Source of the DNA: Chloroflexota bacterium
GTDB lineage: Bacteria; Chloroflexota; Anaerolineae; Anaerolineales; Villigracilaceae
Direction: 5' to 3'
Length of the DNA: 64,000 bases
Assembly: GCA_016191845.1 (NCBI GenBank)
Contig: JACPVF010000015.1
Coordinates: 343,258-407,257, forward strand
Shown here: positions 233 through 64,000 of the stretch, piece after piece
Position numbering within the stretch: position 1 is the first letter of the stretch
How the letters are laid out: every line of letters starts with the position of its first letter
Made by a program: the position numbers and the translations under genes
Notes under the pieces: generated by a model
Seen by the model: the letters and a program-made list of their open reading frames with translations, nothing else
Databases searched by the model: none
Told to the model about the DNA's origin: nothing

Positions 233-624
233 GACGACGCCTCCGAACAATAAATTGCGCTTACAAAAGCTCCTGCCAGATTCGTGCTAATCCTTGGGCG
301 GCGGACTTAAGTCCATCCTGAGGTTGGCTCTACTAGTAACCTTGATTGTGATGATACCCAAGACCAAATAAATGCTCTATAGCTTTAATGTCACCAATGT
401 TGACGACAATCGTCACAATTTTAAGGTGCACAAAAATTCCCCTCCCGGTTTGCCCCCCGTTTACGCATATCTTATTTCTTTCTTACACACTTGCGTTAAA
501 ATCCACAAATGTTTTCATGCTTTCGATTGCCAGCCGCTGGTTCGATGTCTGCTGTAAGAAAGGTGCGGGTGGAGTTGACAGTATCCCTGGCGTGGAATTT
601 CACACTTTGTTCAAGGATGGCACC

Positions 625-1920
625 ATGAAGGAAAGACTTTCGAAAATCAGCCGCAGGACGTGGATCATTCTCGGCGTGGTTGCGGCGGTGGTCGCAGTTG
701 TGGCATATATGATCTTCGGGCGTGGCCGCGGTAACACCGACACGCAGTACACGACCGAAAAACTGAAGCGCGGTACATTGACCGCCACTGTGGGTGCGAC
801 GGGTACCGTCCGCGCCCAGCAGAGCGCAGTGCTCACTTGGGAGACCAATGGCACCGTGGAAAAGGTCGACGTAAAGGTGGGTGACCAGGTCCAGCAGGAC
901 CAGGTGCTGGCCACCCTGCAGAAGATCTCCCTGCCGCAAAATATCATCGCGGCTGAGGCGGACCTGATCAACGCCCAGCAGACACTTGATGACCTGCTGG
1001 CCTCGGATACAGCCCGCGCCCAGGCAGCCATCACCCTGCGTAAGGCCCAGGATAATTACGACACGGCCAAGTCCTACCGCGAGTCGCTTAATGAAAAGAT
1101 CGACCTGAAAAAGGTGACCTACATCTTCATCGCAGGCCGCAGGATTCCCCAGGTCAAATACTACAAGGGTTATGCTGATCCTGAGACCATCGCCAAGGCC
1201 GATGAGGATCTGGCGCTCAAGAAAGCCCAACTCGACGATGCCCAGCGCGAATATGACCGTCTGAAGGATGGTCCCAATTCAGCGGATGTGGCCGCAGCCC
1301 AGGCGCGTGTGGACGCCGCCCAGGCCACCCTCAACATGGCCCGCATCGCTGCTCCCTTTGCTGGCACCGTCACCCAGGCTGAGCCCCTGCCCGGGGATCA
1401 GGTCAGTGCGGGCACGACTGCCTTCCGCGTGGATGATCTCTCGCACTTCCTGGTGGACGTTCAGATCTCCGAGGTGGATATCAACTCCGTCTCAGTGGGG
1501 CAGCAGGTGACGCTCACCTTCGACGCCATCTTGAACAAAACCTATAACGGCAAGGTGGTGGAGGTCGGCCAGGCGGGCAACTCCGTGCAGGGCGTGGTCA
1601 GCTTCGACGTCACGATCGAATTGACCGATCCCGATCCCGCCGTCAAGCCTGGCATGACGGCAGGTATCAACATCGTCGTTACCGAATTGAAGGATGTGTT
1701 GATGATCCCCAACCGCGCGGTCCGCGTGGTGGATAACAAGCGTGTGGTGTACGTTTTGCGCAACGGACAGCCTGTAATGGTGGGAATCCGCCTCGGGCAA
1801 TCCTCCGATAATTACAGTGCGTTGGCCGACGGCGATCTGAAGGAAGGTGACCTAATCATCCTGAATCCGCCGACCACCTTCGGCCCGGGAGGTCCGGGCG
1901 GCGGTGGAGGCCCGTTCTAA
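625..1920 (+). CDS. HlyD/MacA-type periplasmic adaptor (membrane fusion protein) of an ABC efflux system
   Basis: In ORF 388..1920, the internal ATG at 625 follows AAGGATGG and gives [31 protein letters not shown] (an N-terminal TM anchor). A beta-barrel/coiled-coil adaptor-like sequence follows (TGTVRA...VGDQV..DQVLATL). The stop overlaps the start of the next gene. Confidence 0.85.
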
Positions 1921-2600
1921 TGGCTGCCGATAATGTTATCGAAGTCCGTGAACTGACCAAGACCTATAAGATGGGTGAAGTGGAGGTGCAGGCTCTGCGG
2001 GGCGTGTCCTTCGCCATCCAACGTGGGGAGGTGGTCTCCATTATGGGGCCTTCAGGCTCGGGCAAGTCCACGATCATGAACACACTGGGTTGTCTCGATC
2101 GCCCTACCTCGGGAGAGTACTTCCTCGACGGGGAGTCGGTGGCGCAGATGACTGATGATCAGCTGGCCAGCGTACGCAATCGCAAGGTTGGCTTCGTGTT
2201 CCAAAGCTTCAACCTGCTCTCGCGTCAGACTGCCACATTCAACGTGGAACTGCCCCTGCGTTATGCGGGCCTCGTGGAAGAACGCCGCGCCAAGGCGGAG
2301 GCCGCCCTGCGCGCCGTGGGTCTCGAACAGCGCATGAACCATCGTCCCACTGAACTTTCGGGCGGACAGCAGCAGCGCGTGGCCATTGCCCGCGCCATCG
2401 TCAACGACCCTGCCATCATCATGGCCGATGAGCCGACCGGCAACCTCGACAGTCGCGTGGGCAAGGAGATCATGTCCCTGCTGTTGAACCTGAACAAGGA
2501 ACGCGGTACGACCCTGATCATTGTCACGCATGATCCGAACATTGCCGACCAGACCCAACGCGTCATCCGTTTGCGGGACGGTCTTTTGGAGGCGGCATGA
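1920..2600 (+). CDS. MacB/LolD-type ABC transporter ATP-binding protein
   Basis: Walker [10 protein letters not shown], signature LSGGQQQR, Walker [14 protein letters not shown]-loop VTHD. There is a 4-nt overlap with the downstream permease gene. Confidence 0.93.
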
Positions 2601-3826
2601 ATTTTACTCAAACCATCATCGAAGCCTTGGAAAGCATCATGTCCAACAAGCTTCGCTCAGGCCTGACGGTGCTGGGCATCGTCATCGGCGTGGCGGCAGT
2701 GATCGCCATGCTGGCCGTCGGCAACGGCGCACAGGACAGCATTACAGGCTCGATCAGCGGCATCGGCACCAACCTGCTGTTCGTCTTTCGCGGCGGTACG
2801 GACAATTCCATCCGCAACGTCAAGCCATTGACCCTGCAGGACGCTGACGCGCTGGCCGACCCCTTTGCGGCGCCTTCGGTGGCGGCGGTCTCGCCCGTGT
2901 TACAAACCGATGCCGAAGTTTCCTACGGCGGCGAGGTGACCACCACCACCATCACGGGTGCACTGCCTTCCTATTTCCCCGTTCGAAACTTGAACGTGAC
3001 TGAGGGCGAGCTTCTGACCGAGGAAAACATCCTGGGACGGGCCTCGGTGGCGTTGATCGGCCCCGATACGGCGGACAAGCTCTTTGGTCGGCACGAAGGC
3101 CTGACGGGCGAGACCATCCGCATCGCGGGACAGCCTTTCCGTATCATCGGTGTGTTGGAATCCAAGGGCGGCGGCTCCTTCGGCAGCCAGGACGACGTGG
3201 TCATCATCCCATTGACCAGTGCGCAGACCCGCCTGGTCCACCGCGCCAATGCGGACCAAGTGGACGTGATCTTCGTGCAAGCCGTCAGCGCTGAGGCGGT
3301 GCCCCAGGCCACGCAGGAGATTTCTGACATCCTGCGCCAGCGCCATCGCACCGAGATCGGCGCGGACGATTTCACCGTCTTCAGCCAGCAGGATTTCCTC
3401 TCGACGGCGGCTTCCATCACGGGAGTGTTGACCATCTTCTTGGGCGGCATCGCGGCCATCTCGCTCTTGGTGGGTGGCATCGGCATCATGAACATCATGC
3501 TGGTCTCGGTCACCGAACGCACGCGCGAGATCGGCCTGCGCAAGGCGCTCGGCGCGCGCAAACGCGACATCCTGATCCAGTTTCTGACCGAGTCCTCGCT
3601 GTTGAGTTTGATCGGCGGCCTGATCGGGATCGGTCTGGGGTGGCTGATTGCCTTCATCGTTGGAAGGGTGGCAGCCGCCACGGGAACGGTCTTCAATCCC
3701 CGCGTTGGGCTGGATGCCGTTCTCCTGGCCACGCTCTTCTCGGCGGCGGTCGGCCTGTTCTTTGGCATCTACCCTGCCAACCGTGCGGCGGGCCTTGAAC
3801 CTGTCGAGGCGCTGCGATACGAGTAA
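2597..3826 (+). CDS. MacB-type ABC transporter permease (FtsX family with a large periplasmic domain)
   Basis: 409 aa. An N-terminal TM ([21 protein letters not shown]) is followed by a periplasmic domain of about 220 aa and a C-terminal FtsX-like 3-TM bundle ([14 protein letters not shown]...YPANRAA). Confidence 0.9.
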
Positions 3827-46851: not shown

Positions 46852-47676
46852 TTAATGGATGGTTCTCTGCACCCAGATGCCGTTCCAGTTGTCCACGCCG
46901 CCGCAGGAGAGGGTGAACTCGTCGTAGGTGTATTCCTCGCGCCGATTGGGGAAGGGATTGTACAACTCAACCCAGCCGCCATTGCCGCCGTTTCGCCCGG
47001 CGGGCATGACCTTGTCGAGCACAACCCAGTGGCCCACGCCTGCCCCGCGCAGCCGTCCCGTGCCGGCGTCGATGTTGACGCCCGCGATCAGGCGATGGGT
47101 CTGGAGCATTTTGTTGAAGCGACCGGGCGAGGGGCGGTAGCCGATGACCGGGTCGGTCAGGCCTACCTTGAAATCGAGGATATAGCCCAGCTCACGGCTC
47201 AGGCCGTACAGGTTCAGGATTCCCTCCAGAGTGCCGATCCCGGTGGTGTTGTCTCGTTTCCCACCGATGATCTTATTGTAGGCCTCGGGTAACTCCTGTT
47301 TCCACGTCTTCAGGACCTGGTCGATCTCCACGCTGACCAGGAAGGCCACACACAGTTCACCGCACAGGTTATGTTTGACATCGCCTTCGACGGACATATA
47401 TTGAGCGGCGTCGTTCGGGTCGGGGGTGGGGTTGGCGATCAATACTTCATTTGGATATTTTTCAAGGTAGTCTTCCAGGTAGGCGTCGTTGATCCAGCCG
47501 AGCTGTCCCTTGGCGATGACCTCCGACCACACGACCTGGTGGCCGAGCATGGTCAGGGTCTGCTGGTTGCCGGTGGGCGTAATAACGGTGCCGGTTGGGA
47601 GGTCGATCAGATTGGCGCCGTTAGGGGCCCGCCGAAGCGCGCCGTGGTCGATGATCCATTTTTGGTTCATGGTCAT
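46852..47676 (-). CDS. SH3-like domain plus papain-like (C39-like) cysteine peptidase domain protein, paralogue 2
   Basis: The N-terminal domain ends in GQLGWINDAYLEDY. A PTPDP linker follows, then QYMSVEGDVKHNLCGELCVAFL (Gln/Cys) and GVGHWVVLDKV...VELYNPF (His, Asn/Asp). The start is taken at MTMNQKW (47676) after AAAGGATGG. Confidence 0.7.
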   Translation of the reverse strand: MTMNQKWIIDHGALRRAPNGANLIDLPTGTVITPTGNQQTLTMLGHQVVWSEVIAKGQLGWINDAYLEDYLEKYPNEVLIANPTPDPNDAAQYMSVEGDVKHNLCGELCVAFLVSVEIDQVLKTWKQELPEAYNKIIGGKRDNTTGIGTLEGILNLYGLSRELGYILDFKVGLTDPVIGYRPSPGRFNKMLQTHRLIAGVNIDAGTGRLRGAGVGHWVVLDKVMPAGRNGGNGGWVELYNPFPNRREEYTYDEFTLSCGGVDNWNGIWVQRTIH

Positions 47677-47687
47677 TCCATCCTTTC

Positions 47688-48569
47688 TTAGCCGCCGAGG
47701 TTCCGCTTGACCCACCAACCGGGCCAGGACGGGCTGTTGCAGGATTTGATGAACTCGTTGAACGAGTATTCCTGACGGCGGTTGTGGTAGGGGTTGTAGA
47801 GTTCGACGCGGCCCGCATTCATACCGTTGGGCATGACCTTGTCCACGACGACCCAGTGCAGGATTCCCTTTTCGGCCACGGATTTGTTCTTACCTTTTTT
47901 GGTGGAGGTGTCGTCGTTCTTGTTGATCAGTTTTCCGCGGCCGTTGATGGTCACCATCGCAATGAGGAAATGCGTCTGGAGCATCGCACCGATGCGTCCC
48001 TGCGATGGCTGGAACCCGATCAGCGGGTCGGTCAGCCCGGCGCGGAAACTGACCAGGTTGCCGTTATCGGTGGTATAGCTATAGGCGGTCAGGATGCTGC
48101 GTAGGTCTTCAGCACCTGTTGGTTTGTCGCGATCCCCAGCCAGGATGCTGTTGTAGAAACTGGGGGCGGCAGTACGCCATTTAGCGAGCACCGACTCGAT
48201 ATCCTCCCGGACGACGAAAGCGATGCACAGCTCACCGCACATGTTGAACTTGGTCTTGCCTTCGACGAGCATGTATTGAGGGGCATCCGTCGGTTCGGGG
48301 GTGGGGTTGGGGATCTGCACCTCCGGGTTCGGGAATTGCTCGATGTATTCATCCAGCCAGGCATCGTTGATCCAGCCGGTCTTGACGACGCCATCCGATC
48401 CCGTGTATTGGACCTCGGTCCACAGGGAGTCTTTGGCGTTAACGGACAGGTGCTGCTGCTGGCCGGTCGGCTCAACAACAGCACCCAGGGGGAGGTCGAA
48501 GCGTTTGGCTCCGTTGGGGGCAGCGGTAAACGGGGTCAGGGAGGCATAACACCATTTCTTTGCAACCAT
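47688..48569 (-). CDS. SH3-like domain plus papain-like (C39-like) cysteine peptidase domain protein, paralogue 1
   Basis: Same architecture: GWINDAWLDEY, a PTPEP linker, QYMLVEGKTKFNMCGELCIAFVV and GILHWVVVDKV...VELYNPY. No signal peptide is visible. Confidence 0.7.
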   Translation of the reverse strand: MVAKKWCYASLTPFTAAPNGAKRFDLPLGAVVEPTGQQQHLSVNAKDSLWTEVQYTGSDGVVKTGWINDAWLDEYIEQFPNPEVQIPNPTPEPTDAPQYMLVEGKTKFNMCGELCIAFVVREDIESVLAKWRTAAPSFYNSILAGDRDKPTGAEDLRSILTAYSYTTDNGNLVSFRAGLTDPLIGFQPSQGRIGAMLQTHFLIAMVTINGRGKLINKNDDTSTKKGKNKSVAEKGILHWVVVDKVMPNGMNAGRVELYNPYHNRRQEYSFNEFIKSCNSPSWPGWWVKRNLGG

Positions 48570-48646
48570 GGGTTCTCCTTTCTACATCGCCAGGCTTGCA
48601 TAAAAAACTATTAAGAGTATAGCATGCCTGTCAATACGCGGAATCA

Positions 48647-48676
48647 ACAAGTGCCCGCCGAAAGGCGGGCACTTGT
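48647..48676 (-). terminator. GC-rich GAAA-tetraloop hairpin downstream of the TPR-like gene
   Basis: ACAAGTGCCCGCC-GAAA-GGCGGGCACTTGT has a 13-bp perfect stem. The U-run is weak on both strands. Confidence 0.5.
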
Positions 48677-48687
48677 CATCAGTGTGT

Positions 48688-50091
48688 TCAGCGAATGTAC
48701 TTTGATAACCAGGACTCGAGGGAACCCAGTGAAGGCGGGGCGCCGGTGTGTTCGTGGGTAAAGATTCCTCTGGTGAAGGTATGGACGTATGGACAGCTTT
48801 CCGGCGAGCCGCCTGCAAGGGAGGTGCTGCGATACACATCGCCCGTCAATAGATTCCGCACCTCGACCAGCCAGTTGGTGGCGATGCGCTTGATGTAATA
48901 CCCGCCATTGTATGGGCAGGTTTGGACGGTCTGCTGCTGTGGGGTGATACAGGCAACATAATACGAGGTGGCCGGAGTGCGGGCCCATACCGAACTCGAT
49001 GGCGATAGGCTGACCCCGTACAAGAGGGCGCGCTTCGTCCCAGAGTCGAGTCCCAGGATGGGCACGGAAGGCTTGGCGGCGGACCTGTTCTGACAGACTG
49101 ACCGCGCCGCAGAGTCCATCAGTGTCTTGGCCTGTGCGCCGCTGGATTTAGAGTACAGGTTCAGGGTACTGTCGTTGGCGGTCCTGATCTGATCCCGCAC
49201 GGCATTGGTGGAGGCCGCCTTTCCGGCCAGGGACAGCTTATCAAGCGCACCTTCGAAGTCGCTGTCACTGCTGAGGGAATTGGCCCACTGGATGTAGGCC
49301 TGTGCCAACTCGTTGGAAAACTTGGAGGAGTTGACCGGGCCGAGGAATTTAATGACCAGGTTCAAGTGGTCGACGGCTTCATCGTACCGTTTCGATCCCA
49401 GCAATTGTCTGGCCCAATTGAGGTGCAAATCCACATAGGCCTGCTTCGCCTGTTCCGTGGGACTGCCCGCCGCGCTGGGATTTGGGTCTGTGCTGATCGC
49501 CAGGTTATATTTAGCCTCTGCCAAGGAGTAGTTGTTGCTGGCTTCCAGGGATTTGGCCCAGGCGATGTACAACTCTGCCAGCGTTTGGTTGACTTTTTGA
49601 CTTGCTGTCGTGTTGGCATAAGAGGACTTGATCTTCAACAGGCTCTTCTCCGCCCCTGCGAAGTCTTTCTTTGACTGTTGTTCTTTTGACCATTGCAAAA
49701 GTGAATCTGCTGCGGATTGTCGCGCTCCCTCTCTTTGAACGCCTTTCGGGTAAGCCTTTAAATAGGTTTCGAAGTCCGTCACTGCCTGCGACCACTGTTT
49801 TTTCTTGTAGCTATCGCTGGCCTGGACGTACAGCCTGCACTCCTTTGCCTGGGCTGGAACACTCTGCGTAAAGGGAGCGATCTGTTGTGGGAAGAAACGG
49901 GTGATCTGGTCGGCTATGGGGAGCAGGGTGGCGCAATCCCCTTGCGCGTAGAGGCTGCCCACTGAGCGAGTCATCACATACCCGCCAACGTAATATGCGC
50001 CGACACACAAGAAGAGACAGGCGAAAATTACCACGGGCGCCAATACACAACCCCAAACCTTGTTCCCCTTCGGTTTCGTCGTTGTCGTCAT
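48688..50091 (-). CDS. N-terminally anchored membrane protein with TPR-like helical repeats and a Cys-containing C-terminal domain
   Basis: It has the TM VWGCVLAPVVIFACLFLCVGAYYVGGYV. Repeated A-x-x-Y/W-x-x-A/L helical pairs follow (AELYIAWAKSLEASNNYSLAEAKYNLAI..., AQAYIQWANSL...). RBS GGGAGGG lies upstream. GC was about 50% in one 100-nt hand count. Confidence 0.7.
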   Translation of the reverse strand: MTTTTKPKGNKVWGCVLAPVVIFACLFLCVGAYYVGGYVMTRSVGSLYAQGDCATLLPIADQITRFFPQQIAPFTQSVPAQAKECRLYVQASDSYKKKQWSQAVTDFETYLKAYPKGVQREGARQSAADSLLQWSKEQQSKKDFAGAEKSLLKIKSSYANTTASQKVNQTLAELYIAWAKSLEASNNYSLAEAKYNLAISTDPNPSAAGSPTEQAKQAYVDLHLNWARQLLGSKRYDEAVDHLNLVIKFLGPVNSSKFSNELAQAYIQWANSLSSDSDFEGALDKLSLAGKAASTNAVRDQIRTANDSTLNLYSKSSGAQAKTLMDSAARSVCQNRSAAKPSVPILGLDSGTKRALLYGVSLSPSSSVWARTPATSYYVACITPQQQTVQTCPYNGGYYIKRIATNWLVEVRNLLTGDVYRSTSLAGGSPESCPYVHTFTRGIFTHEHTGAPPSLGSLESWLSKYIR

Positions 50092-50216: not shown

Positions 50217-52604
50217 TTATTCATACGCGAGGGTGTCGCGCACGGTCAGCCGCGAGGCCCTTCGGGCGGGCCAGGCGCTGGCGATGGCGGCCAGGGCTAG
50301 GGTGAAGGTAAGCCAGGCAAAGATGCCGCTCAGGCCGTATACAGCCTGCATAGGCGAGGTCAGCAGGGCCATCCCCACTCCATAGCACAGGATGTTCGTG
50401 ATCGGCAGGGATAACACGATGCTAACGGCCCAACTGATCAGGCCGACCACCATGCCTTCCACGATGACGATGCTTTGGATGTCACCGTTCGAGGCGCCGA
50501 TGGCACGCATCACACCGATCTCGCGCGTGCGCTCGAGCACGTTGATGCTCATGGTGCCCATCAGGCCGAGTCCGCCCACGACGGCGATCATGGTGGCCAT
50601 GGCCAGCATGAAATAGACCAGGATGTCGGTCTGTGCCTTCTGGTCGCGGATGAAGTCCGCGCCGAGTTGGGCCGACCCAAATTGGATGCCGTTGGCCTCA
50701 TATAACTTCTGGATCTGGTCACGGACGTTCTTCTGCGTGACAGCGTCGTGGCCGGTGGTCAACACGCGCAGCGAGTAGACCTGGCCCGGGCGGCCGACCA
50801 GCTTGCTCAGATACTCGTAGTTGACGTAGAGTAGCGGCGGGCTGACGTTCCCTGTGATGGTGTACGTGCCCACGATTTGCCATTGGGTCTTCCTGCCGTC
50901 GATATCAATGGTCAGCCAGTCGCCAACCTTCAGGTCGGGGAAGACGTTGAGCAGGTGGTTGCCGATGACGATGGCATTCTCGTCGCCTGTTTCCAGCCAG
51001 CGGCCCGAGGTGATGACGGGGTCGATCAGGGTCGAGGTCGAGGGCGGGGCCATGAACATGATCTGCGTGCCCGCCGTCTCCTCGTCGCGGATCAACGTGC
51101 CCGGGTATTCGGTCCAGCCTTCTACGCTTTGGACCCCTGGGACCTTCTCTGCGATGGAGGCCACTTCCTCGTAGCGGTAGTAGCGCCCGAACGAGATGTT
51201 GACGTCAGCCAGGAAGTAACCCTGGATATCCTTGATAGTCTGGTCGAAGGAGGCCCACAGGTTGTACACGCCGATGAAGATCGCGCCAGCCAGCACCAGC
51301 GTGACGAGGGTCAGGCTGAGGCGCAGTTTGCGGCGGAAGGCATTTCGCAGCGAGAGGCGCATCGGGCGAGAGATCCACAGGGCGGCGCGGCTGACGGCCT
51401 TATCCTTGGGCTTGGCATTCCCGCCGATGCCATAGTCGCTGACGGCTTCGCGCACGGTCACGCGCACGCTGTTATAGATCGGCCAGATCGCTGCCAGGAG
51501 CGGCACCAGCATCGACACGATGGCCTGCTGGATGATGGCCGACGGGTAGCCCGGGTAGGGCATGGGCGCGAAGTTCAAGTAGGTGGCCATGCCGCCGCCA
51601 AAGGATTCCGCCGCCGAGTTGGCCAGCGGGATGGCGATCAGGAAAGCAGCCAGGCCGAAGCCCAGGATCAGCACCACATACATGCCGAAGATCTGACCCG
51701 TCCCGCCGCCGACGGCTTTCATGATTCCGATCTGGCGGGTCTGTTGAGTCATGAGGGCGGTGACGGTGTTGATGATCAGGAAGCCGCTCAGGAATACGAT
51801 CATGTAACCCAGCACGTTGAGCACGAAGAAGATGCCTTGCGTGATGTTCCAGGCAAAGTGATGACCAGGCTGATAAACAGACACGTAATACACTTCCGCG
51901 CCCGCGCGTTTGAGACGGTCGGACACGGCCTGCGCCACTTCGGTAACGTGCTTGGCATCGGTCTGATTCTCAGCCACGCTGATGGACAGCCCGCTATAGT
52001 CGGACGAGCCGCCCAGCCATTCCATGGTCTTGGGCGTGACGAAGGCATACATGGTCTGCGTGAAGCTGAACGGGAAGCCCGTCACCGCGTGCATGTAGCC
52101 CGCCAGCTTCAACTGGCGCTGTTTGCCGTTGCTCAGTTCAACGGTGATGATGTCGCCGACTTTGTAACCCGCAGGAATGGCCGAGGCGTCCACGAGGATC
52201 TCATGCTCACCCAATGGCGGCAGGGAGGTCTCGCCGGTGACAGGCTTGACTCGGTTCAATGTCAACTGACTGGGGTTATCCGTGGCGATGAATTGGATCT
52301 GGATGGGTTGCTCGTCGCTGCGCACCAGCTTGGCGCCGCTCATCGACAGGCCTTCCACGGCGTCCACGCCCGGGACTTCGCGCGCCAGCTTGACCATGTC
52401 GTCGTTCAACGGGTACGCGTAGACCTCCGCTTCCGACGGGCTGGCCGACTGGTAGTCGCTGTCCATGCTTTCGAGCATGTAAGCACTCAGGTTGTTGTTG
52501 AACCCGATCGCAAAGGTACCGACCATGATGGTCAGGACGGTGAGGATGGTGCGCGACTTGTTGCCCCAAAAGTCAGCCCACACCTTCTTCCAGCGGCTGC
52601 TCAT
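50217..52604 (-). CDS. Double-FtsX ABC transporter permease (two MacB-like halves fused)
   Basis: 795 aa. It has two copies of the TM + periplasmic domain + 3-TM FtsX pattern (QTRQIGIMKAVGG... and ERTREIGVMRAIGA...). Confidence 0.88.
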   Translation of the reverse strand: MSSRWKKVWADFWGNKSRTILTVLTIMVGTFAIGFNNNLSAYMLESMDSDYQSASPSEAEVYAYPLNDDMVKLAREVPGVDAVEGLSMSGAKLVRSDEQPIQIQFIATDNPSQLTLNRVKPVTGETSLPPLGEHEILVDASAIPAGYKVGDIITVELSNGKQRQLKLAGYMHAVTGFPFSFTQTMYAFVTPKTMEWLGGSSDYSGLSISVAENQTDAKHVTEVAQAVSDRLKRAGAEVYYVSVYQPGHHFAWNITQGIFFVLNVLGYMIVFLSGFLIINTVTALMTQQTRQIGIMKAVGGGTGQIFGMYVVLILGFGLAAFLIAIPLANSAAESFGGGMATYLNFAPMPYPGYPSAIIQQAIVSMLVPLLAAIWPIYNSVRVTVREAVSDYGIGGNAKPKDKAVSRAALWISRPMRLSLRNAFRRKLRLSLTLVTLVLAGAIFIGVYNLWASFDQTIKDIQGYFLADVNISFGRYYRYEEVASIAEKVPGVQSVEGWTEYPGTLIRDEETAGTQIMFMAPPSTSTLIDPVITSGRWLETGDENAIVIGNHLLNVFPDLKVGDWLTIDIDGRKTQWQIVGTYTITGNVSPPLLYVNYEYLSKLVGRPGQVYSLRVLTTGHDAVTQKNVRDQIQKLYEANGIQFGSAQLGADFIRDQKAQTDILVYFMLAMATMIAVVGGLGLMGTMSINVLERTREIGVMRAIGASNGDIQSIVIVEGMVVGLISWAVSIVLSLPITNILCYGVGMALLTSPMQAVYGLSGIFAWLTFTLALAAIASAWPARRASRLTVRDTLAYE

Positions 52605-53728
52605 GACGTGCCTCGCTTTTGGGCGTTGACCAGTTCATTCTTCGCGGCGATCTGTTGAAGTGCTTCGCGCGTGACTTCGGACTGGTCCAGCAATTCTGTG
52701 AGCTGATCGTAGCTGAGGGCCAGCACTTCGACGGTGCTGTGTTCCGAGGCGCGGATCGAGGCCCGACGGCGGCGGTCATGGAAGTAGGCCATCTCGCCGA
52801 AGAACTTGCCCGGACCCAACTGCAGGGCGATGACGTCCGACTGACCCGGGCGCGGCAGGACCACATCCACGGTGCCCCTGGAGACGATGTAGAACGTGTC
52901 GGCGCTGGAGCCTTCAGTGAAGATCATGGTGCCCGCTTCGAAGGTCTGTTCCTTCGCATTGCGCGTGGCCCATAGCATCTGGTCCTGGGTAAGGGTGGGC
53001 ATGGCCCTGGCCACATACTCGTTGACGATCTCGCCGTCGGCGATGAGTGCGGTGCGATGGGTGCGCTTGGCCAGTCCGCTGTCGTGCGTGACGATGATGA
53101 TGGTCTTGCCCTTGGCAACCAGGTCGTTGAACAGGGCAAAGACCGACTCAGCGGTCTTCGAGTCGAGGTTGCCCGTCGGCTCGTCTGCGATGATGACGGG
53201 CGGATCGTTGGCCAGCGCGCGCGCAATGGCGATACGTTGCTGCTGTCCGCCGGAGAGGGCGGTGGGCAACTTGTAGGCATGATCGGCAAGCTCCACCATT
53301 TCGAGCAATTCCAGGGCGCGTTTCTCGCGCTGACGCATGGGATAGGTGCGGCAGAAGTCCATCGGCAGCATGATGTTTTCAATGACCGAAATGGTCGGCA
53401 GCAGTTGGAAGAACTGGAACACGATCCCCAGGTTCTTGCCGCGCCAGCGCGCCATTTTATTCTCGCCCATGGTGTGGACGCCTGTTCCGTTGACGAAGAC
53501 CTCGCCCGAGGTCGGGCGGTCGATGCCCGTGATCATGTTGAGCAGGGTCGATTTGCCGCTGCCCGACTTGCCGATGATGCTGACGAACTCGCCTGCCTCG
53601 ATCTCTAGGTCGATGCTGTTCAAGGCATGGTAATCGCCGATGGCAGTTTTGTAATATTTGTGCACATCGCGCAGGTGGATCATGGCGTGGTCGCCGTTAT
53701 CGTTCTTGGGTTTGCTAAAAAGGGACAT
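52601..53728 (-). CDS. MacB/LolD-type ABC ATPase fused to a C-terminal cyclic-nucleotide-binding-like domain
   Basis: It has [28 protein letters not shown] and VTHD. About 130 aa follow: FEAGTMIFTEGSSADTFYIVSRGTVDV...LGPGKFFGEMAYFHDRRRRASIRAS (the cNMP beta-barrel/PBC pattern). The start MSLFSKPK is at 53728. The ORF-track extension to 54076 reads through the repeat and into the upstream gene. Confidence 0.85.
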   Translation of the reverse strand: MSLFSKPKNDNGDHAMIHLRDVHKYYKTAIGDYHALNSIDLEIEAGEFVSIIGKSGSGKSTLLNMITGIDRPTSGEVFVNGTGVHTMGENKMARWRGKNLGIVFQFFQLLPTISVIENIMLPMDFCRTYPMRQREKRALELLEMVELADHAYKLPTALSGGQQQRIAIARALANDPPVIIADEPTGNLDSKTAESVFALFNDLVAKGKTIIIVTHDSGLAKRTHRTALIADGEIVNEYVARAMPTLTQDQMLWATRNAKEQTFEAGTMIFTEGSSADTFYIVSRGTVDVVLPRPGQSDVIALQLGPGKFFGEMAYFHDRRRRASIRASEHSTVEVLALSYDQLTELLDQSEVTREALQQIAAKNELVNAQKRGTS

Positions 53729-53740
53729 AAGGACCTCGAT

Positions 53741-53830
53741 TCGCGCTGAGCGGAGGCTGAACGGAGTGAAGCTGTAGTCGAAGCGTGTTCTAGTAAACTC
53801 TCGCTTCGACTGCGCTCTCCGCTCAGCGCG
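53741..53830. repeat. Dispersed palindromic intergenic repeat, copy D (complete hairpin element, intra-operon gap)
   Basis: TCGCGCTGAGCGGAG[GCTGAACGGAGTGAAGCT]GTAGTCGAAGCG, then loop TGTTCTAGTAAACTCT, then CGCTTCGACTGCGCTCTCCGCTCAGCGCG. Confidence 0.85.
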
Positions 53831-53835
53831 TATAC

Positions 53836-54852
53836 TTACTTCTCGAACTTGACGGTGGCGGTCATGCCCCAGCGCATGGCGGGATTCTTGTCCGTGAGCA
53901 ACACAGTGACTTCGTACACGATGTCGCCCTGATTCTGGCCATAGTTCTGGCTGATGGACAGGATATTGCCCTTCAGTTCCTGCCCGGGCAGCGCGTCCAG
54001 CGTGACGGTGACGGGCTGGCCTTCCTTGAGGGAGACCACATCGATCTCGGTCAGGTCGGTGGTCTTGACCACCCAACCCGTCAGGTCGGCGATGGTGACC
54101 ACGGGCTGTCCCGCCGAGGCGAACTCGCCCACTTTTAACTTCAGGCTGGTGATCACGCCCGGGAACGGGGCGCGGACCTCAGCGTTGGCCAGGGCAGCGC
54201 GCACCCCCGCAGTGTCTTCGGTGAAGCTCGGGTTGTTGAGGATGTCGTAATCCTTCTGGGCCTGGGTGAGCTGCGACTGGGCATTGTCCACAGAAGTCTG
54301 GAGTTCCATCCACTGGATGGCCTTGCGATACTTCGACCAGGCATCGTCGAGCTTGCGGCGTTGTTCGCGGCCGTTGTTGGGAGCCAGGTACTTGTACGGC
54401 TCGTAGTCAGCACGGGCCTCGTTGAGTTTCTTCAGCGTGGATTCCACCGCCTGCGACGGGGTCATGCCCTTGAAGTCGTTTGGAACGTCGAAGTTGTCCA
54501 GCTTGTACTGCGCATCGCGGACGGCCTGGTAGGCGGCCGTTAAATTGGTGGATGCATCCGCCTGGGCCGATTCGAGGGTCTTGGCCTCGGGGCTTTCCAG
54601 CCGCGCGATGACCTGTCCCGCCTCGACAGCCTCGCCTTCGGCAACCAACACTTCGCTGACCAGACCGCTGGCATTCAGCGCCAGTTCGGTGTAGCGGATG
54701 GGTTCCAGCCGCCCCTCGCTGATGATGGTCGGATCGGCCAGCACGGTGGGGATGGGCGTTTCGGTGGGGGCAGCAGTGGGAGCAAGCTGGCCGCAGGCGG
54801 TCAGCACGACGCTCAAGATGACAAATGCGATCAGGAACTTGGTGGTTTTCAT
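53836..54852 (-). CDS. HlyD/MacA-type periplasmic adaptor lipoprotein
   Basis: The ATG at 54852 follows AAGGAAG and gives MKTTKFLIAFVILSVVLTACG (lipobox). It has adaptor-type coiled-coil and beta-barrel segments (RAPFPGVITSLKLKVGEF). Confidence 0.85.
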   Translation of the reverse strand: MKTTKFLIAFVILSVVLTACGQLAPTAAPTETPIPTVLADPTIISEGRLEPIRYTELALNASGLVSEVLVAEGEAVEAGQVIARLESPEAKTLESAQADASTNLTAAYQAVRDAQYKLDNFDVPNDFKGMTPSQAVESTLKKLNEARADYEPYKYLAPNNGREQRRKLDDAWSKYRKAIQWMELQTSVDNAQSQLTQAQKDYDILNNPSFTEDTAGVRAALANAEVRAPFPGVITSLKLKVGEFASAGQPVVTIADLTGWVVKTTDLTEIDVVSLKEGQPVTVTLDALPGQELKGNILSISQNYGQNQGDIVYEVTVLLTDKNPAMRWGMTATVKFEK

Positions 54853-55043
54853 GGGAAAGGCTTCCTTTTTTGATTTCATGATAATGATAGGCCAAATGAC
54901 GATGAAAGCAAATACCCGTCCGACGGGTTTCGTCCTGGCCGAGTGGACAGGTGAACACACCATGAAAACTTACGTTTTTGTTGGGCTTTGGTTGCAGAAA
55001 AAAACCGACCCATACAGGTCGGCTTGGTTGTGTCGTGGATAAG

Positions 55044-55703
55044 CTAGTGCCCGTCCCGATTCCCGAAAGACCAGCTCAGGTCGGTGTACATCGTCTCACT
55101 GGCGTAGGCGCGGTCGGTGACGGGGTTGAGGCGCGCGGCCATCTGCGGAGTAATCAGGGGGATGGGCTTCCAACTGTAAAACTTCTTATACAACTTTACG
55201 CTGCTTTCCTCATTCCAGGCCCAGTCGGCGGGCTGAAATTTCGACACGTCGAACGGACGCGTGTATCCGCGCAAGGTCTTGCTCTGGTGGATGGAGCAAT
55301 AATGCTCGAAGTAAGTCATCACCAGTTCGCGGAAGTTTTTGTGGACCGCTTCGCGGAAACCGAGGTTGACGTAGTTCGACTTGGCGATGGCACCCCAGCG
55401 GCCGTCGAGTTGATACAGCGCGAGGACGTGGTCGTCGTCCTCACCGGGATCAGCCCGAATGTCGAGGATTAGCGGACGGAATCCGATCCGCCACAGGGCT
55501 AGCGCGGCAAACAATCCGCCATCCAGACAGTGACTCTGGAAGTCGTGCATTACGTTGAGCGGAGATCGGTCCCGCTCCTCGGCGCGGTAGGGCATCGAGT
55601 CGAGATATTGCTGGATGAGGAAGGGGGAGGTCAGGGAGCGGAAAGTGGAAAGCAGGTCAGGAGAAAGATGAGATTCGAATTCGGTCAGAATGGACATAGA
55701 CAC
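55044..55703 (-). CDS. Transglutaminase-like cysteine-protease-fold protein
   Basis: SHCLDGGLFAALALWRIGF (Cys motif) and DDHVLALY..DGRWGAI (His, Asp) are ordered as in the transglutaminase core. Confidence 0.6.
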   Translation of the reverse strand: MSMSILTEFESHLSPDLLSTFRSLTSPFLIQQYLDSMPYRAEERDRSPLNVMHDFQSHCLDGGLFAALALWRIGFRPLILDIRADPGEDDDHVLALYQLDGRWGAIAKSNYVNLGFREAVHKNFRELVMTYFEHYCSIHQSKTLRGYTRPFDVSKFQPADWAWNEESSVKLYKKFYSWKPIPLITPQMAARLNPVTDRAYASETMYTDLSWSFGNRDGH

Positions 55704-56871: not shown

Positions 56872-58338
56872 TTACTTCTCCAACATCATGCTGGCTTCCG
56901 CGTTCAGCCAGCGGCGACCGTCGCGGGCCAGCAGGTCGTAGCCTTCGAGCGGACCCCAACTGCTGGGCTTGTAAATCCCCAGGGACGGGGTCTGGTGCTG
57001 CTCCCAGGTCTGCAGGATCGGGTCGATCAGCGACCAGGCCGTCTCCACCTCGTCGGCGCGGGTGAAGAGCGAGGCGTCCCCTTGCAGGGCGTCCAGCAGC
57101 AGACGTTCGTAGGCTTCGGGGATGGCGGTCTTGCCGAAAGCTTCGGCGTAATGGAACTCCATATCCACTGAGCGGGCCTCGGAGACGGTGTCGGGCGCCT
57201 TGGCCTCGAAGCGCAGATGCACGCCTTCGTCAGGCTGCAGGTAGAGCACCAACAGGTTCGGCTTCATCGTCTGCATCGGGAACATGCTCAAGGGCGGTTC
57301 CTTGAACTGGATAATGATCTGCGATTGCTTCTCGGCCAGGTGCTTGCCCGAACGCAGATAGAACGGCACGCCCTTCCAGCGCCAGTTGTTGATGAACAGC
57401 CGCAGGGCGGCATAGGTCGGCGTGGTGGAATTGGGCTTGACCTCGGGCTCCTCGCGGTAACCCTTGTATTGTGCGCGGACCGTGTTGACGGCCACCTCTT
57501 CGGGAGTCATCGGTTTGATGGCGCTCAGTACCTTGACCTTTTCGTTGCGCAGATGCGCTGCGCTGAACGAGGCGGGCGGTTCCATCGCCACCAACGTCAA
57601 CAATTGCATCAGGTGATTCTGGAACATGTCGCGCAACACGCCCACGCCGTCGTAGAAGCCTGCGCGGTGTTCGAGGCCGACCTTCTCGGCCACGGTGATC
57701 TGCACGTGGTCGATGTAATTACGGTTCCAGATCGGTTCGAAGATGGTGTTGGCGAAGCGCGTGAACAGGATGTTCTGAACGGTCTCCTTGCCGAGATAAT
57801 GGTCGATGCGGTAGATCTGATTCTCGTTCAGCGCCTTGTGGACCTGCTGGTTGAGCTTGACCGCCGAGGCCAGGTCGGTGCCGAAGGGCTTTTCGAGCAC
57901 CACCCGCCGCCAGCCGCCGTTTTCGTGGAGCTGGCCCGTGGCGTCGAGGTTGTCGATGATGACCGGAAAGAGCGAAGGCGGCAAGGCCATGTAATAAAGA
58001 CGGTTGGCGTCGCCAGCTTCGAGTCCCTTCAAATTTTCATTCAACCGCTGGAAGTCCGCCGCCTCGGCATACTTGCCCTGGACGTAATGCAGATTGGGCG
58101 CGAAGGCGGACCATTCCGCGTCGGTGAATTTGAACTCTGCGAATTCCTTCGCGCCGTTGAGCAGATGCGCGCGGAATTCGTCATCGCTGAAGGCCGTACC
58201 GCCGAAGCCGACGATGCTGAATTTTTTCGGCATGCGCCCTTTGATCGACAGGTTGAGCAGCGAGGGGATCAGCTTGCGCTGGGTCAGGTCCCCCGAGGCG
58301 CCAAAGATGATAATGGAAGTGGAAAGATCGTTGGTCAT
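56872..58338 (-). CDS. zwf: Glucose-6-phosphate 1-dehydrogenase
   Basis: It has IIIFGASGDLTQRKLIPSL, EKPFG and RIDHYLGKE. Confidence 0.95.
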   Translation of the reverse strand: MTNDLSTSIIIFGASGDLTQRKLIPSLLNLSIKGRMPKKFSIVGFGGTAFSDDEFRAHLLNGAKEFAEFKFTDAEWSAFAPNLHYVQGKYAEAADFQRLNENLKGLEAGDANRLYYMALPPSLFPVIIDNLDATGQLHENGGWRRVVLEKPFGTDLASAVKLNQQVHKALNENQIYRIDHYLGKETVQNILFTRFANTIFEPIWNRNYIDHVQITVAEKVGLEHRAGFYDGVGVLRDMFQNHLMQLLTLVAMEPPASFSAAHLRNEKVKVLSAIKPMTPEEVAVNTVRAQYKGYREEPEVKPNSTTPTYAALRLFINNWRWKGVPFYLRSGKHLAEKQSQIIIQFKEPPLSMFPMQTMKPNLLVLYLQPDEGVHLRFEAKAPDTVSEARSVDMEFHYAEAFGKTAIPEAYERLLLDALQGDASLFTRADEVETAWSLIDPILQTWEQHQTPSLGIYKPSSWGPLEGYDLLARDGRRWLNAEASMMLEK

Positions 58339-58365
58339 AGGTTTTATCCAGACCTCGGAGGTCTC

Positions 58366-59277
58366 TTATTCAGTCTTCTTCACCGCATGTCCGCCGAACT
58401 GATTGCGCAGCGCGGCCAGCATGCGGGCGGGGAAGTTCTCTTCGTCGCGGCTGGCGAAGCGCATTTGCAGCGCCAGCGTGATGATGGGAGCGGGCACATC
58501 CAGGTCAATGGATTCGAACACGGTCCAGCGGCCTTCGCCTGAATCCGCCACCCAGGGCTTGATCTCGGCCAGGGCCTGGTCTTCGTCGAGGGCATTCGCC
58601 GCCAGGTCGAGCAGCCACGAGCGGACGACGCTGCCGTGCTGCCAGATGTGCGAGACCTGCGCCAGGTCGAGGCCGAATTCTTCCTTTGCTTTGAGGATGC
58701 CGAAGCCTTCGGCATAGGCCTGCATCATGCCGTACTCGATGCCGTTGTGCACCATCTTGACGTAATGTCCCGCGCCGTGAGGACCGACTCGTCCCCAGCC
58801 TTTATCGGCCGCAGGAGCCAGCGTCTCGAAGATCGGGCGTAGCGACTCGACTACCTCCGTCTTGCCGCCGATCATCATGCTGTAGCCTTCAGCCAGACCC
58901 CAGATGCCGCCGCTGGTGCCGCAGTCCACGAACTCGATTCCTTTGGATTCGAGAAACTCCGCATGGCGGATAGTGTCCTTGTAATTCGAGTTGCCGCCGT
59001 CGATGATGATGTCGCCCTTGCTCAACAGGCTCGACAACTTCTCGATGGTCTCCGTGGTGGGCTTCCCCGCTGGGACCATGATCCAGAAGACGCGTGGCGT
59101 TTGCTTGAACTTGCCAACCGCTTCTTCGAGCGTGCGCGCACCATCCACGCCGTTCTGGATCGCGGCGTCCACGGCGGCCGCGCCCAGGTCAAAACCGATC
59201 ACATGATGCCCGCCGCGCGTCAGCCGCGTGGACATGTTCAGGCCCATCTTGCCTAATCCGATGAATGCAATTTCCAT
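58366..59277 (-). CDS. gnd: 6-phosphogluconate dehydrogenase, decarboxylating (short ~300-aa form)
   Basis: It has MEIAFIGLGKMGLNM (Rossmann fold), DGGNSNY and GAGHYVKMVHNGIEYG. The ATG at 59277 follows GGAGAAAC. Confidence 0.92.
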   Translation of the reverse strand: MEIAFIGLGKMGLNMSTRLTRGGHHVIGFDLGAAAVDAAIQNGVDGARTLEEAVGKFKQTPRVFWIMVPAGKPTTETIEKLSSLLSKGDIIIDGGNSNYKDTIRHAEFLESKGIEFVDCGTSGGIWGLAEGYSMMIGGKTEVVESLRPIFETLAPAADKGWGRVGPHGAGHYVKMVHNGIEYGMMQAYAEGFGILKAKEEFGLDLAQVSHIWQHGSVVRSWLLDLAANALDEDQALAEIKPWVADSGEGRWTVFESIDLDVPAPIITLALQMRFASRDEENFPARMLAALRNQFGGHAVKKTE

Positions 59278-59331
59278 GTTTCTCCACAAATTTCTCCCCT
59301 CTTCCTCAGGAAGAGGGGTTGGGGGTAAAGG

Positions 59332-63444: not shown

Positions 63445-63921
63445 TTACAGTCCAGAAACCTTATAGCTCCCAACCCCTTCGCGCAGCATGGACTTGACCT
63501 GCGCGCGGGCATTCTTCCAGCGGGAGGAGACCACCTGGGCCAGACGGTCGAGGATGACCGAGCCCGTGTTGGGATGCTCCCTGCATAGCCATTCCAGGTC
63601 GCGCCCGCGGATGCGGATGGCTTCCACAGCGGTGGTGCTGCGCGCCCCCGAGGTATAGGTGGGGCTGCCGATCACCGCCGACCAGCCGACCACGTCGCCT
63701 GCCTTGAGGCGGGTCAGCACGATGGGCGGACCGTCGTAGGGCTTGTAGCGGACTTCCACGGCGCCGTGCATGAGCAGGTAGAGATAATCGGCCCTGCTGC
63801 CCTGCTCGAAGAGCATCGTGTCTTCGGGGCAGGCGTACGACTGGAAGAGAGGCAGGAGCAGATCCATTTGCCGCTCGCTGAATCCCTGAAAGAGAGGAAT
63901 GTCCGTGAAAGTGTCCAACAT
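63445..63921 (-). CDS. Stand-alone cyclic-nucleotide-binding domain protein
   Basis: It has IPLFQGFSERQMDLLL, LFEQGSRADYLYLLMHGAVEV and GDVVGWSAV...ARSTTAVEA. The start is taken at MLDTF (63921). Confidence 0.8.
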   Translation of the reverse strand: MLDTFTDIPLFQGFSERQMDLLLPLFQSYACPEDTMLFEQGSRADYLYLLMHGAVEVRYKPYDGPPIVLTRLKAGDVVGWSAVIGSPTYTSGARSTTAVEAIRIRGRDLEWLCREHPNTGSVILDRLAQVVSSRWKNARAQVKSMLREGVGSYKVSGL

Positions 63922-64000
63922 TTTTTCCCATCTTATCCCCATATCAAAAATGCAAGTAGTATCAAAAATCATAAAAGTATAGACATTAATCCCGCCGTTT

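Follow-up and report, generated by a model that had tools for sequence, protein, structure and literature searches.

A MacB-type ABC ATPase with a C-terminal cyclic-nucleotide-binding domain in an adaptor-ATPase-permease cassette of a Chloroflexota bacterium

The adaptor-ATPase-permease cassette

We analyzed a stretch of 64,000 nucleotides (hereafter the window) from a Chloroflexota bacterium of the family Villigracilaceae (assembly GCA_016191845.1, contig JACPVF010000015.1, positions 343,258 to 407,257). On its minus strand, three genes encode, in this order, an adaptor (P0004), an ATP-binding cassette (ABC) ATPase (P0002) and a permease (P0003) (Table 1). The original prediction, made from the DNA sequence, had described the ATPase as a MacB-type protein followed by a domain resembling those that bind cyclic nucleoside monophosphates (cNMP), and Pfam bears this out, with both domains found in P0002. 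ABC_tran matches residues 36-185 with 127.6 bits. The C-terminal region scores as a cNMP-binding domain (PF00027) with 69.9 bits, for a gathering cut-off of 27.5, and covers positions 2-88 of the 89 in the profile. Judged by its sequence, P0002 is confirmed as a complete MacB/LolD-type ATPase that ends in an intact cyclic-nucleotide-binding (CNB) domain. A longer frame of the ATPase, started at a TTG, was rejected as the gene; it extends across the intergenic region.

Table 1. Features of the three-gene cassette and of its surroundings in the window
Feature	Coordinates	Strand	Description or basis
ABC ATPase-CNB fusion (P0002)	52601-53728	minus	375 amino acids (aa), ATG at 53728
Nucleotide-binding domain of MacB/LolD/MJ0796 type	53021-53683	minus	P0002 residues 16-236; motifs intact
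cNMP-binding beta-barrel	52682-52948	minus	Pfam PF00027, P0002 residues 261-349
Phosphate-binding cassette F309-A327, FGEMAYFHDRRRRASIRA	52748-52804	minus	Gap-free HMMER alignments to cGMP-dependent kinase
Single-chain permease (P0003)	50217-52604	minus	795 aa, two MacB_PCD+FtsX halves
HlyD/MFP-type periplasmic adaptor (P0004)	53836-54963	minus	Likely true start M38 at 54852
Intrinsic-terminator-like hairpin and T-run	55002-55025	minus	Pattern scan, sequence reading
Palindromic element between adaptor and ATPase genes	53729-53835		RNA fold -49.8 kcal/mol, z -4.5
219-aa protein	55044-55703	minus	Just upstream of the cassette
Glucose-6-phosphate dehydrogenase, adjoined by 6-phosphogluconate dehydrogenase	56872-59289
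Tetratricopeptide repeat (TPR) gene and two further genes	46852-50091		Downstream of the cassette
Stand-alone cNMP protein	63445-63972	minus	PF00027, 53.1 bits
Second MacAB-like set	388-3826		226-aa ATPase

The nucleotide-binding domain (NBD) carries the complete catalytic ABC motifs, as read from the sequence: the Walker A motif GKSGSGKST, the Q-loop, the signature LSGGQQQR, the Walker B motif with E183, and the H-loop with H215. Its nearest sequences in PDB are MJ0796 (4.9e-59) and the Streptococcus pneumoniae chain 5xu1_A (7.6e-57), followed by LolD and MacB. With AlphaFold2, an alignment of 26 close orthologues led to a model of low quality (predicted local distance difference test, pLDDT, 52.7), and a usable one was obtained by widening the alignment with ABC NBDs and CNB domains from the same genome (mean pLDDT 88.3, predicted template-modelling score 0.74). 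The top match of this model in Foldseek is the NBD of Escherichia coli MacB (5lj9, template-modelling score (TM) 0.94, root-mean-square deviation 1.3 A). By these sequence and fold matches the ATPase falls within the MacB/LolD/FtsE subfamily of type VII ABC systems. An identity as one of the NCBIfam equivalogs LolD (230.9 bits for a cut-off of 307.75), FtsE (215.9 for 264.85), DevA (170.2 for 295.8) or MacB (206 for 966) was rejected.

Beyond the NBD, the model has helices at 237-242 and 248-257, eight strands within 259-339 with a short helix (312-316) among them, and finally helices at 340-348 and 351-371. This predicted order of secondary structure matches the canonical layout of CNB domains. 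Of the 50 solved chains that Foldseek ranked highest, none spans both domains of P0002 and only NBD chains are ranked, so that the CNB fold is assigned from sequence and secondary structure. The C-terminal 136 aa match CNB domains of the cGMP- and cAMP-dependent kinases (PKG and PKA) in PDB, with E-values from 2e-17 to 1e-13. In these HMMER matches, the alignment of the phosphate-binding cassette with FGERALLYDEPRSATIIA (PKG) and FGEAALIHNTQRSATIIA is free of gaps. The cassette carries the pattern G-E-x(8)-R-x-A-[ST] as G311, E312, R321, A323 and S324, residues that the gap-free alignment places at ribose- and phosphate-contact positions; the residue after Arg321 is Arg, in place of Ser or Ala. 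The original prediction held that this cassette departs from the canonical form. We find that 'RRAS' had been read as a deviant 'R[ST]A', one residue out of register, and that both length and register are normal. Doubt about ligand specificity thus stems from the variation of Arg321 among orthologues, which is discussed below, and not from the cassette of P0002.

The predicted translational coupling of the ATPase gene to a fused double-FtsX permease agrees with what we observe: the stop codon of the former and the start codon of the latter overlap as ATGA, and Pfam identifies FtsX (92.2 bits) and MacB_PCD (68.9 bits) in two stretches each. The permease matches MacB, 5xu1_M (6.5e-9), YtrF, LolF and LolE among PDB sequences. 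By its Pfam matches it has the FtsX four-helix module and the large extracytoplasmic MacB_PCD domain that characterize type VII permeases, twice in one chain. Since the permease has two halves and there is only one ATPase gene, the ATPase would act as a homodimer and carry two sensor domains.

The MacA-like adaptor expected upstream of the ATPase is also present, as a HlyD-type gene with matches to HlyD_3 (70.7 bits), HlyD_D23 (66.8 bits) and Biotin_lipoyl_2 in Pfam and to RND_mfp in NCBIfam (101.3 bits, above the cut-off of 94.9). Its signal peptide contains a lipobox (L54-T55-A56-C57, LTAC), and P0004 is therefore probably a membrane-anchored lipoprotein. The terminator-like hairpin further upstream would close the preceding gene and delimit the adaptor-ATPase-permease transcription unit at its 5' end. 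We searched the genome, which is 99% complete, for a gene of the TolC/OEP family (PF02321) and found no match, whereas control genomes did match. A MacAB-TolC tripartite pump was rejected on this ground.

Recurrence of the fusion and comparison with known systems

We surveyed how widespread the NBD-CNB fusion is and found that it recurs in Chloroflexota and Actinomycetota. All of the 120 clusters listed in the protein search have the two domains, at identities of at least 80%. A genome scan yielded 245 places confirmed with tblastn, and the best 79 loci were fetched. Nearly all of these 79 are labelled Anaerolineales, Anaerolineae or Chloroflexota, and the order adaptor, ATPase, permease is present in all those that reach far enough. 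The ATPase is the most conserved of the three proteins across the 79 loci (74-97% identity), against 57-96% for the permease and 37-96% for the adaptor. The fusion might in principle be an artefact of assembly or gene calling that joined two genes. Given the same continuous frame in the 79 independent genome loci and the 120 listed clusters, the single stop-free frame across both domains in the window, and the colinear homologues in isolates of Actinomycetota described below, we consider the probability of such an artefact to be negligible.

The distribution of the cassette within the family is patchy. Of 200 genomes sampled from this GTDB family, 35 have a close orthologue (at least 70% identity); in the genus of the window, 6 out of 10 do. 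More broadly, a match spanning the NBD-CNB junction occurs in 28 of 401 sampled Chloroflexota genomes. None of the 1307 matching plasmid records covers at least 80% of P0002. A scan with a distant relative (P0184) gave one close relative, in a metagenome-assembled genome of Chloroflexia (L080); the other 14 loci gave a match to one domain only, and none is actinobacterial.

Some relatives have more elaborate arrangements. In 11 of the 79 loci (L010, L021, L024, L029, L031, L032, L048, L059, L063, L064 and L079) the modules occur in tandem, in the order adaptor, ATPase-CNB, second permease, ATPase-CNB, permease. Tandem modules are also found in L098 and L099, the two that were examined, where the paired permeases are about 30% identical. 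The upstream ATPase-CNB of tandem loci often lacks the cassette Arg and has Ser, Thr, Asn or Ala instead. In L098 the CNB part lies in another frame, which reflects either a frameshift or a sequencing error. In more distant representatives there are between one and three CNB domains, and the architectures include an NBD-NBD-CNB chain and a chain made of a zinc ribbon, an NBD and two CNB domains.

In Actinomycetota, Rv2564 of Mycobacterium tuberculosis is listed with PF00027 (PMC4886424), and the pairs Rv2563/64 and Rv0072/73 have been described as having MacB-like membrane domains, their 'glutamine' label being doubtful (PMC7761784). Proteins of this type (Rv0072/Rv0073 and Rv2563/Rv2564, 'GlnQ') share with P0002 a MacB-type ATPase followed by PF00027 in one chain. 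We located actinobacterial genomes with a 23S probe and then searched them for the fusion. One genome of Mycobacteriaceae (L231) encodes a 349-aa FtsX permease and then a 329-aa ATPase-CNB, without an adaptor gene. The latter is colinear with P0002 across both domains (32% identity over residues 15-333, E 2e-57 with BLASTP), has a canonical cassette (FGEMGPVFGLPRSATVRA), and has full-length homologues in 18 of the 301 sampled Actinomycetota genomes. The mycobacterial type differs from the system in the window by its single upstream permease and its lack of an adaptor, where the window has a fused permease of 795 aa and a HlyD adaptor. In addition, the linker of the L231 protein is about 19 residues shorter than that of P0002, the long C-terminal helix is missing, and the phylum is different. 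The NBD-CNB fusion is already visible in annotation, for example in mycobacteria, and is less novel than the original prediction implied.

Other actinobacterial candidates turned out not to be fusions: a plain NBD (L220), a CNB domain followed by another C-terminal region (L227), an unrelated ABC protein (L228), a membrane protein with a CNB domain (L229), and a CRP-like protein (L230). The polytopic membrane protein of L229 ends in a canonical CNB domain, and its N-terminal linker (EYLAKALPTLTEEQMIQAT) closely resembles that of P0002 (NEYVARAMPTLTQDQMLWAT). This likeness suggests that the linker and the barrel travel together as a unit from one output domain to another.

The system resembles the adaptor-containing MacB-like systems found in bacteria that have no outer-membrane duct, such as Spr0693-0694-0695 of S. 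pneumoniae (PDB 5xu1). These TolC-less systems share with it an adaptor, a MacB-type ATPase and an FtsX/MacB permease, and 5xu1 is among the best PDB matches of both the ATPase and the permease. However, the ATPase of 5xu1 has no sensor domain, and the permease of 5xu1 is formed by two identical chains with one FtsX module each, not by one fused chain. Two FtsX halves per permease chain together with a MacB-type ATPase are found in the type VII system YbbAP(-TesA) of E. coli (PMC12646458). Its partner is the periplasmic hydrolase TesA and not a HlyD adaptor, and YbbA has no CNB domain. The NBD of YbbA superposes on the model of P0002 with a TM of 0.90-0.93, and YbbP is absent from the PDB sequence matches of the window permease at E <= 0.001. 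As for the principle of a regulatory domain at the C-terminus of an ABC ATPase, it is known from importers: in MetN, MalK, ModC and OpuCA (the last with CBS domains), a C-terminal ligand-binding domain controls NBD closure. These proteins share this principle with P0002 and differ from it in folds, ligands and importer role. MetN chains are among the Foldseek matches of the P0002 model through the NBD only.

Possible gating of the ATPase by a cyclic nucleotide

A search of the genome for cyclases, which would provide the ligand of such a sensor, revealed four class III cyclase genes. The genome also has 16 genes with cNMP domains; in several of them, a canonical cassette is joined in one chain to a histidine kinase, PP2C phosphatase, membrane protein or helix-turn-helix domain. 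The cyclases and the cNMP-domain genes together make cyclic mononucleotide signalling plausible in this organism. Outside the window, on contig C15 (197560-206384), the same genome encodes a paralogous system made of a plain MacB-type ATPase, an overlapping 375-aa ATPase-CNB, two genes for REC-GAF sensor kinases and an 811-aa double-FtsX permease. This second ATPase-CNB is 46% identical to P0002 and has a degenerate signature (VSTGQQQ) and a cassette ending in GGHSRACVRA, with Ser at the position of the Arg. From its sequence, the paralogous system has the appearance of an asymmetric heterodimer in which one of the ATP sites is degenerate.

We consider the chances about even that the system in the window is a cyclic-nucleotide-gated type VII (MacB-like, mechanotransmission) ABC machine. 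More specifically, we tentatively propose, without rating it as probable, that its ATP cycle is directly gated by the binding of cyclic AMP (cAMP) or cyclic GMP (cGMP) to the ATPase subunits of the machine itself. As a cyclic-nucleotide-gated machine, the system would work without an outer-membrane duct and would consist of the lipoprotein adaptor, one permease chain with two FtsX halves, and a pair of ATPases, both with a C-terminal CNB domain on a helical linker (residues 237-257). A cyclic nucleotide produced by the class III cyclases, most likely cAMP, would bind at G311, E312, R321, A323 and S324 and shift the B/C helices (residues 340-371). The linker would pass this shift on to the NBD dimer, where the ease of closure and ATP hydrolysis would change, in the direction of either activation or inhibition. 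The extrusion of a cargo would thereby be linked to the level of the second messenger. In favour of this reading are the Pfam scores of both domains, the gap-free cassette alignment with Arg321 in position, the confident model with its MacB-like NBD and CNB layout, the intact ABC motifs, the ATGA overlap, the presence of the cassette in all 79 loci with the ATPase as its most conserved protein, the single ATPase gene next to a two-halved permease, and the cyclases and other cNMP-domain genes of the genome.

Variation among orthologues is informative about the function of the domain. In 208 orthologue sequences, G311, E312, A323, S324, R326 and A327 never vary, and 97% keep His317. Several observations speak against gating by cAMP or cGMP. 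Position 321 is Arg in 60% of these orthologues (the type of the window protein), His in 33%, and Ser, Asn, Thr, Ala or Gln in 7%, and many more distant relatives have degenerate cassettes. Furthermore, three orthologous cassettes of the same GTDB family (L095-L097) have an ATPase that is 75-84% identical to P0002, ends near residue 240 and lacks the CNB domain. These sensor-less versions indicate that the CNB domain is an add-on which the pump does not need structurally. Finally, the only fusion of a CNB domain with an ABC protein for which we found bench data in the literature, HetC of Nostoc PCC 7120, has ppGpp (guanosine tetraphosphate) and not cAMP as its ligand: its N-terminal cNMP domain is required in vivo and bound ppGpp, GTP and GDP (PMC10986499).

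The case of HetC, an ABC transporter with a nucleotide-binding PF00027 domain, raises the question of whether the C-terminal domain of P0002 senses something other than cAMP or cGMP. Candidate ligands would be ppGpp or a different linear nucleotide, cyclic dinucleotides and metabolites, and in that case pump activity would follow the stringent or metabolic state of the cell instead of the output of the cyclases. The replacement of the canonical Arg in orthologues fits this alternative, as do an unusual basic run in the cassette (RRRR, or KKH in relatives) and the strongly conserved His317. The cassette Arg has also been reported as 'quite variable' in the ATPase-linked CNB family of Kannan et al. 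2007, a family described as AAA-ATPase-linked, partly with ABC-like membrane regions (PMC2246266). Yet all canonical cNMP contact positions are filled in P0002 and the genome invests in class III cyclases. The analogy with HetC is also loose, since that protein belongs to the unrelated class of peptidase-containing ABC transporters, with a six-helix exporter fold and the domain at the N-terminus. On balance we regard a different ligand as unlikely, if well worth keeping in view.

The sensor-less orthologues could also be taken to mean that the CNB domain has ceased to sense anything and serves as a structural or dimerization module, for example with paired C-helices that keep the two ATPases together beneath the single-chain permease, or as a docking site for another protein. 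Many relatives have kept the domain after losing the cassette motifs (P0138, P0140, P0141, P0144, P0148, P0149, P0158 and P0170), the paralogue on contig C15 has Ser in place of the Arg, and the long C-terminal helix predicted after the barrel (residues 351-371) would suit such a role. However, conservation of the ligand pocket as strict as that among the 208 orthologues is more than one would expect of a scaffold alone, and we judge this explanation to be improbable.

For type VII ABC systems (MacB, LolCDE, FtsEX, YbbAP), the usual account is one of control through the substrate or through partner proteins. If gating by a cyclic nucleotide is true, a sensor wired onto the ATPase would show how export or extraction at the envelope can be tied to cell signalling, and the demonstration of gating by cAMP or cGMP would, to our knowledge, give the first bacterial ABC exporter known to be switched by a cyclic mononucleotide. 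As a genome feature, the architecture is seen by routine domain annotation and will not surprise a specialist. The fusion is present in at least two phyla, and its annotation in M. tuberculosis goes back years. A tractable, non-pathogenic version from Chloroflexota, with its intact cassette, could therefore become a model system for all such fusions, and related genomes supply natural comparison sets in the form of cassettes of the Arg and His types, tandem modules and orthologues without the sensor.

Neighbouring genes and other features of the window

The genes around the cassette give no clue to its cargo, because only the 219-aa protein encoded just upstream recurs beside it. Pfam gave no match for this protein, and its sequence has a Cys/His/Asp pattern resembling that of a thiol hydrolase. 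Its position varies: in 7 other loci it is encoded directly 3' of the permease, with 58-68% identity. The TPR gene and the two further genes downstream of the cassette were set aside as cargo or partners, as they recur in the 2-3 closest loci only. A glucose-6-phosphate dehydrogenase gene lies near the cassette both in the window, where it is adjoined by that of a 6-phosphogluconate dehydrogenase, and in 34 of the 79 related loci. We see in this proximity a case of conserved synteny without an obvious functional connection.

The gap between the adaptor and ATPase genes is filled by a palindromic element with a stable predicted RNA fold. Its 14-nucleotide arm (CGCGCTGAGCGGAG) has 31 copies in the genome, which identifies it as a dispersed repeat resembling repetitive extragenic palindromes or miniature inverted-repeat transposable elements (REP/MITE-like) and not as a regulator specific to the operon.

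Two further elements of the original prediction stand with corrected boundaries. The stand-alone cNMP protein near the end of the window is real, and its span reaches 63972 instead of 63921. Its cassette (GDVVGWSAVIGSPTYTSGARS) is degenerate, without the FGE...R.A motif, and canonical binding of a cyclic nucleotide seems unlikely from its sequence. It was set aside as a partner of the system because of its degenerate cassette and its distance of 10 kb, with unrelated genes in between. The other MacAB-like set, which had been placed at 625-3826, in fact spans 388-3826. As predicted, its ATPase lacks the extra domain, which makes this set a convenient comparison for P0002 within the window.

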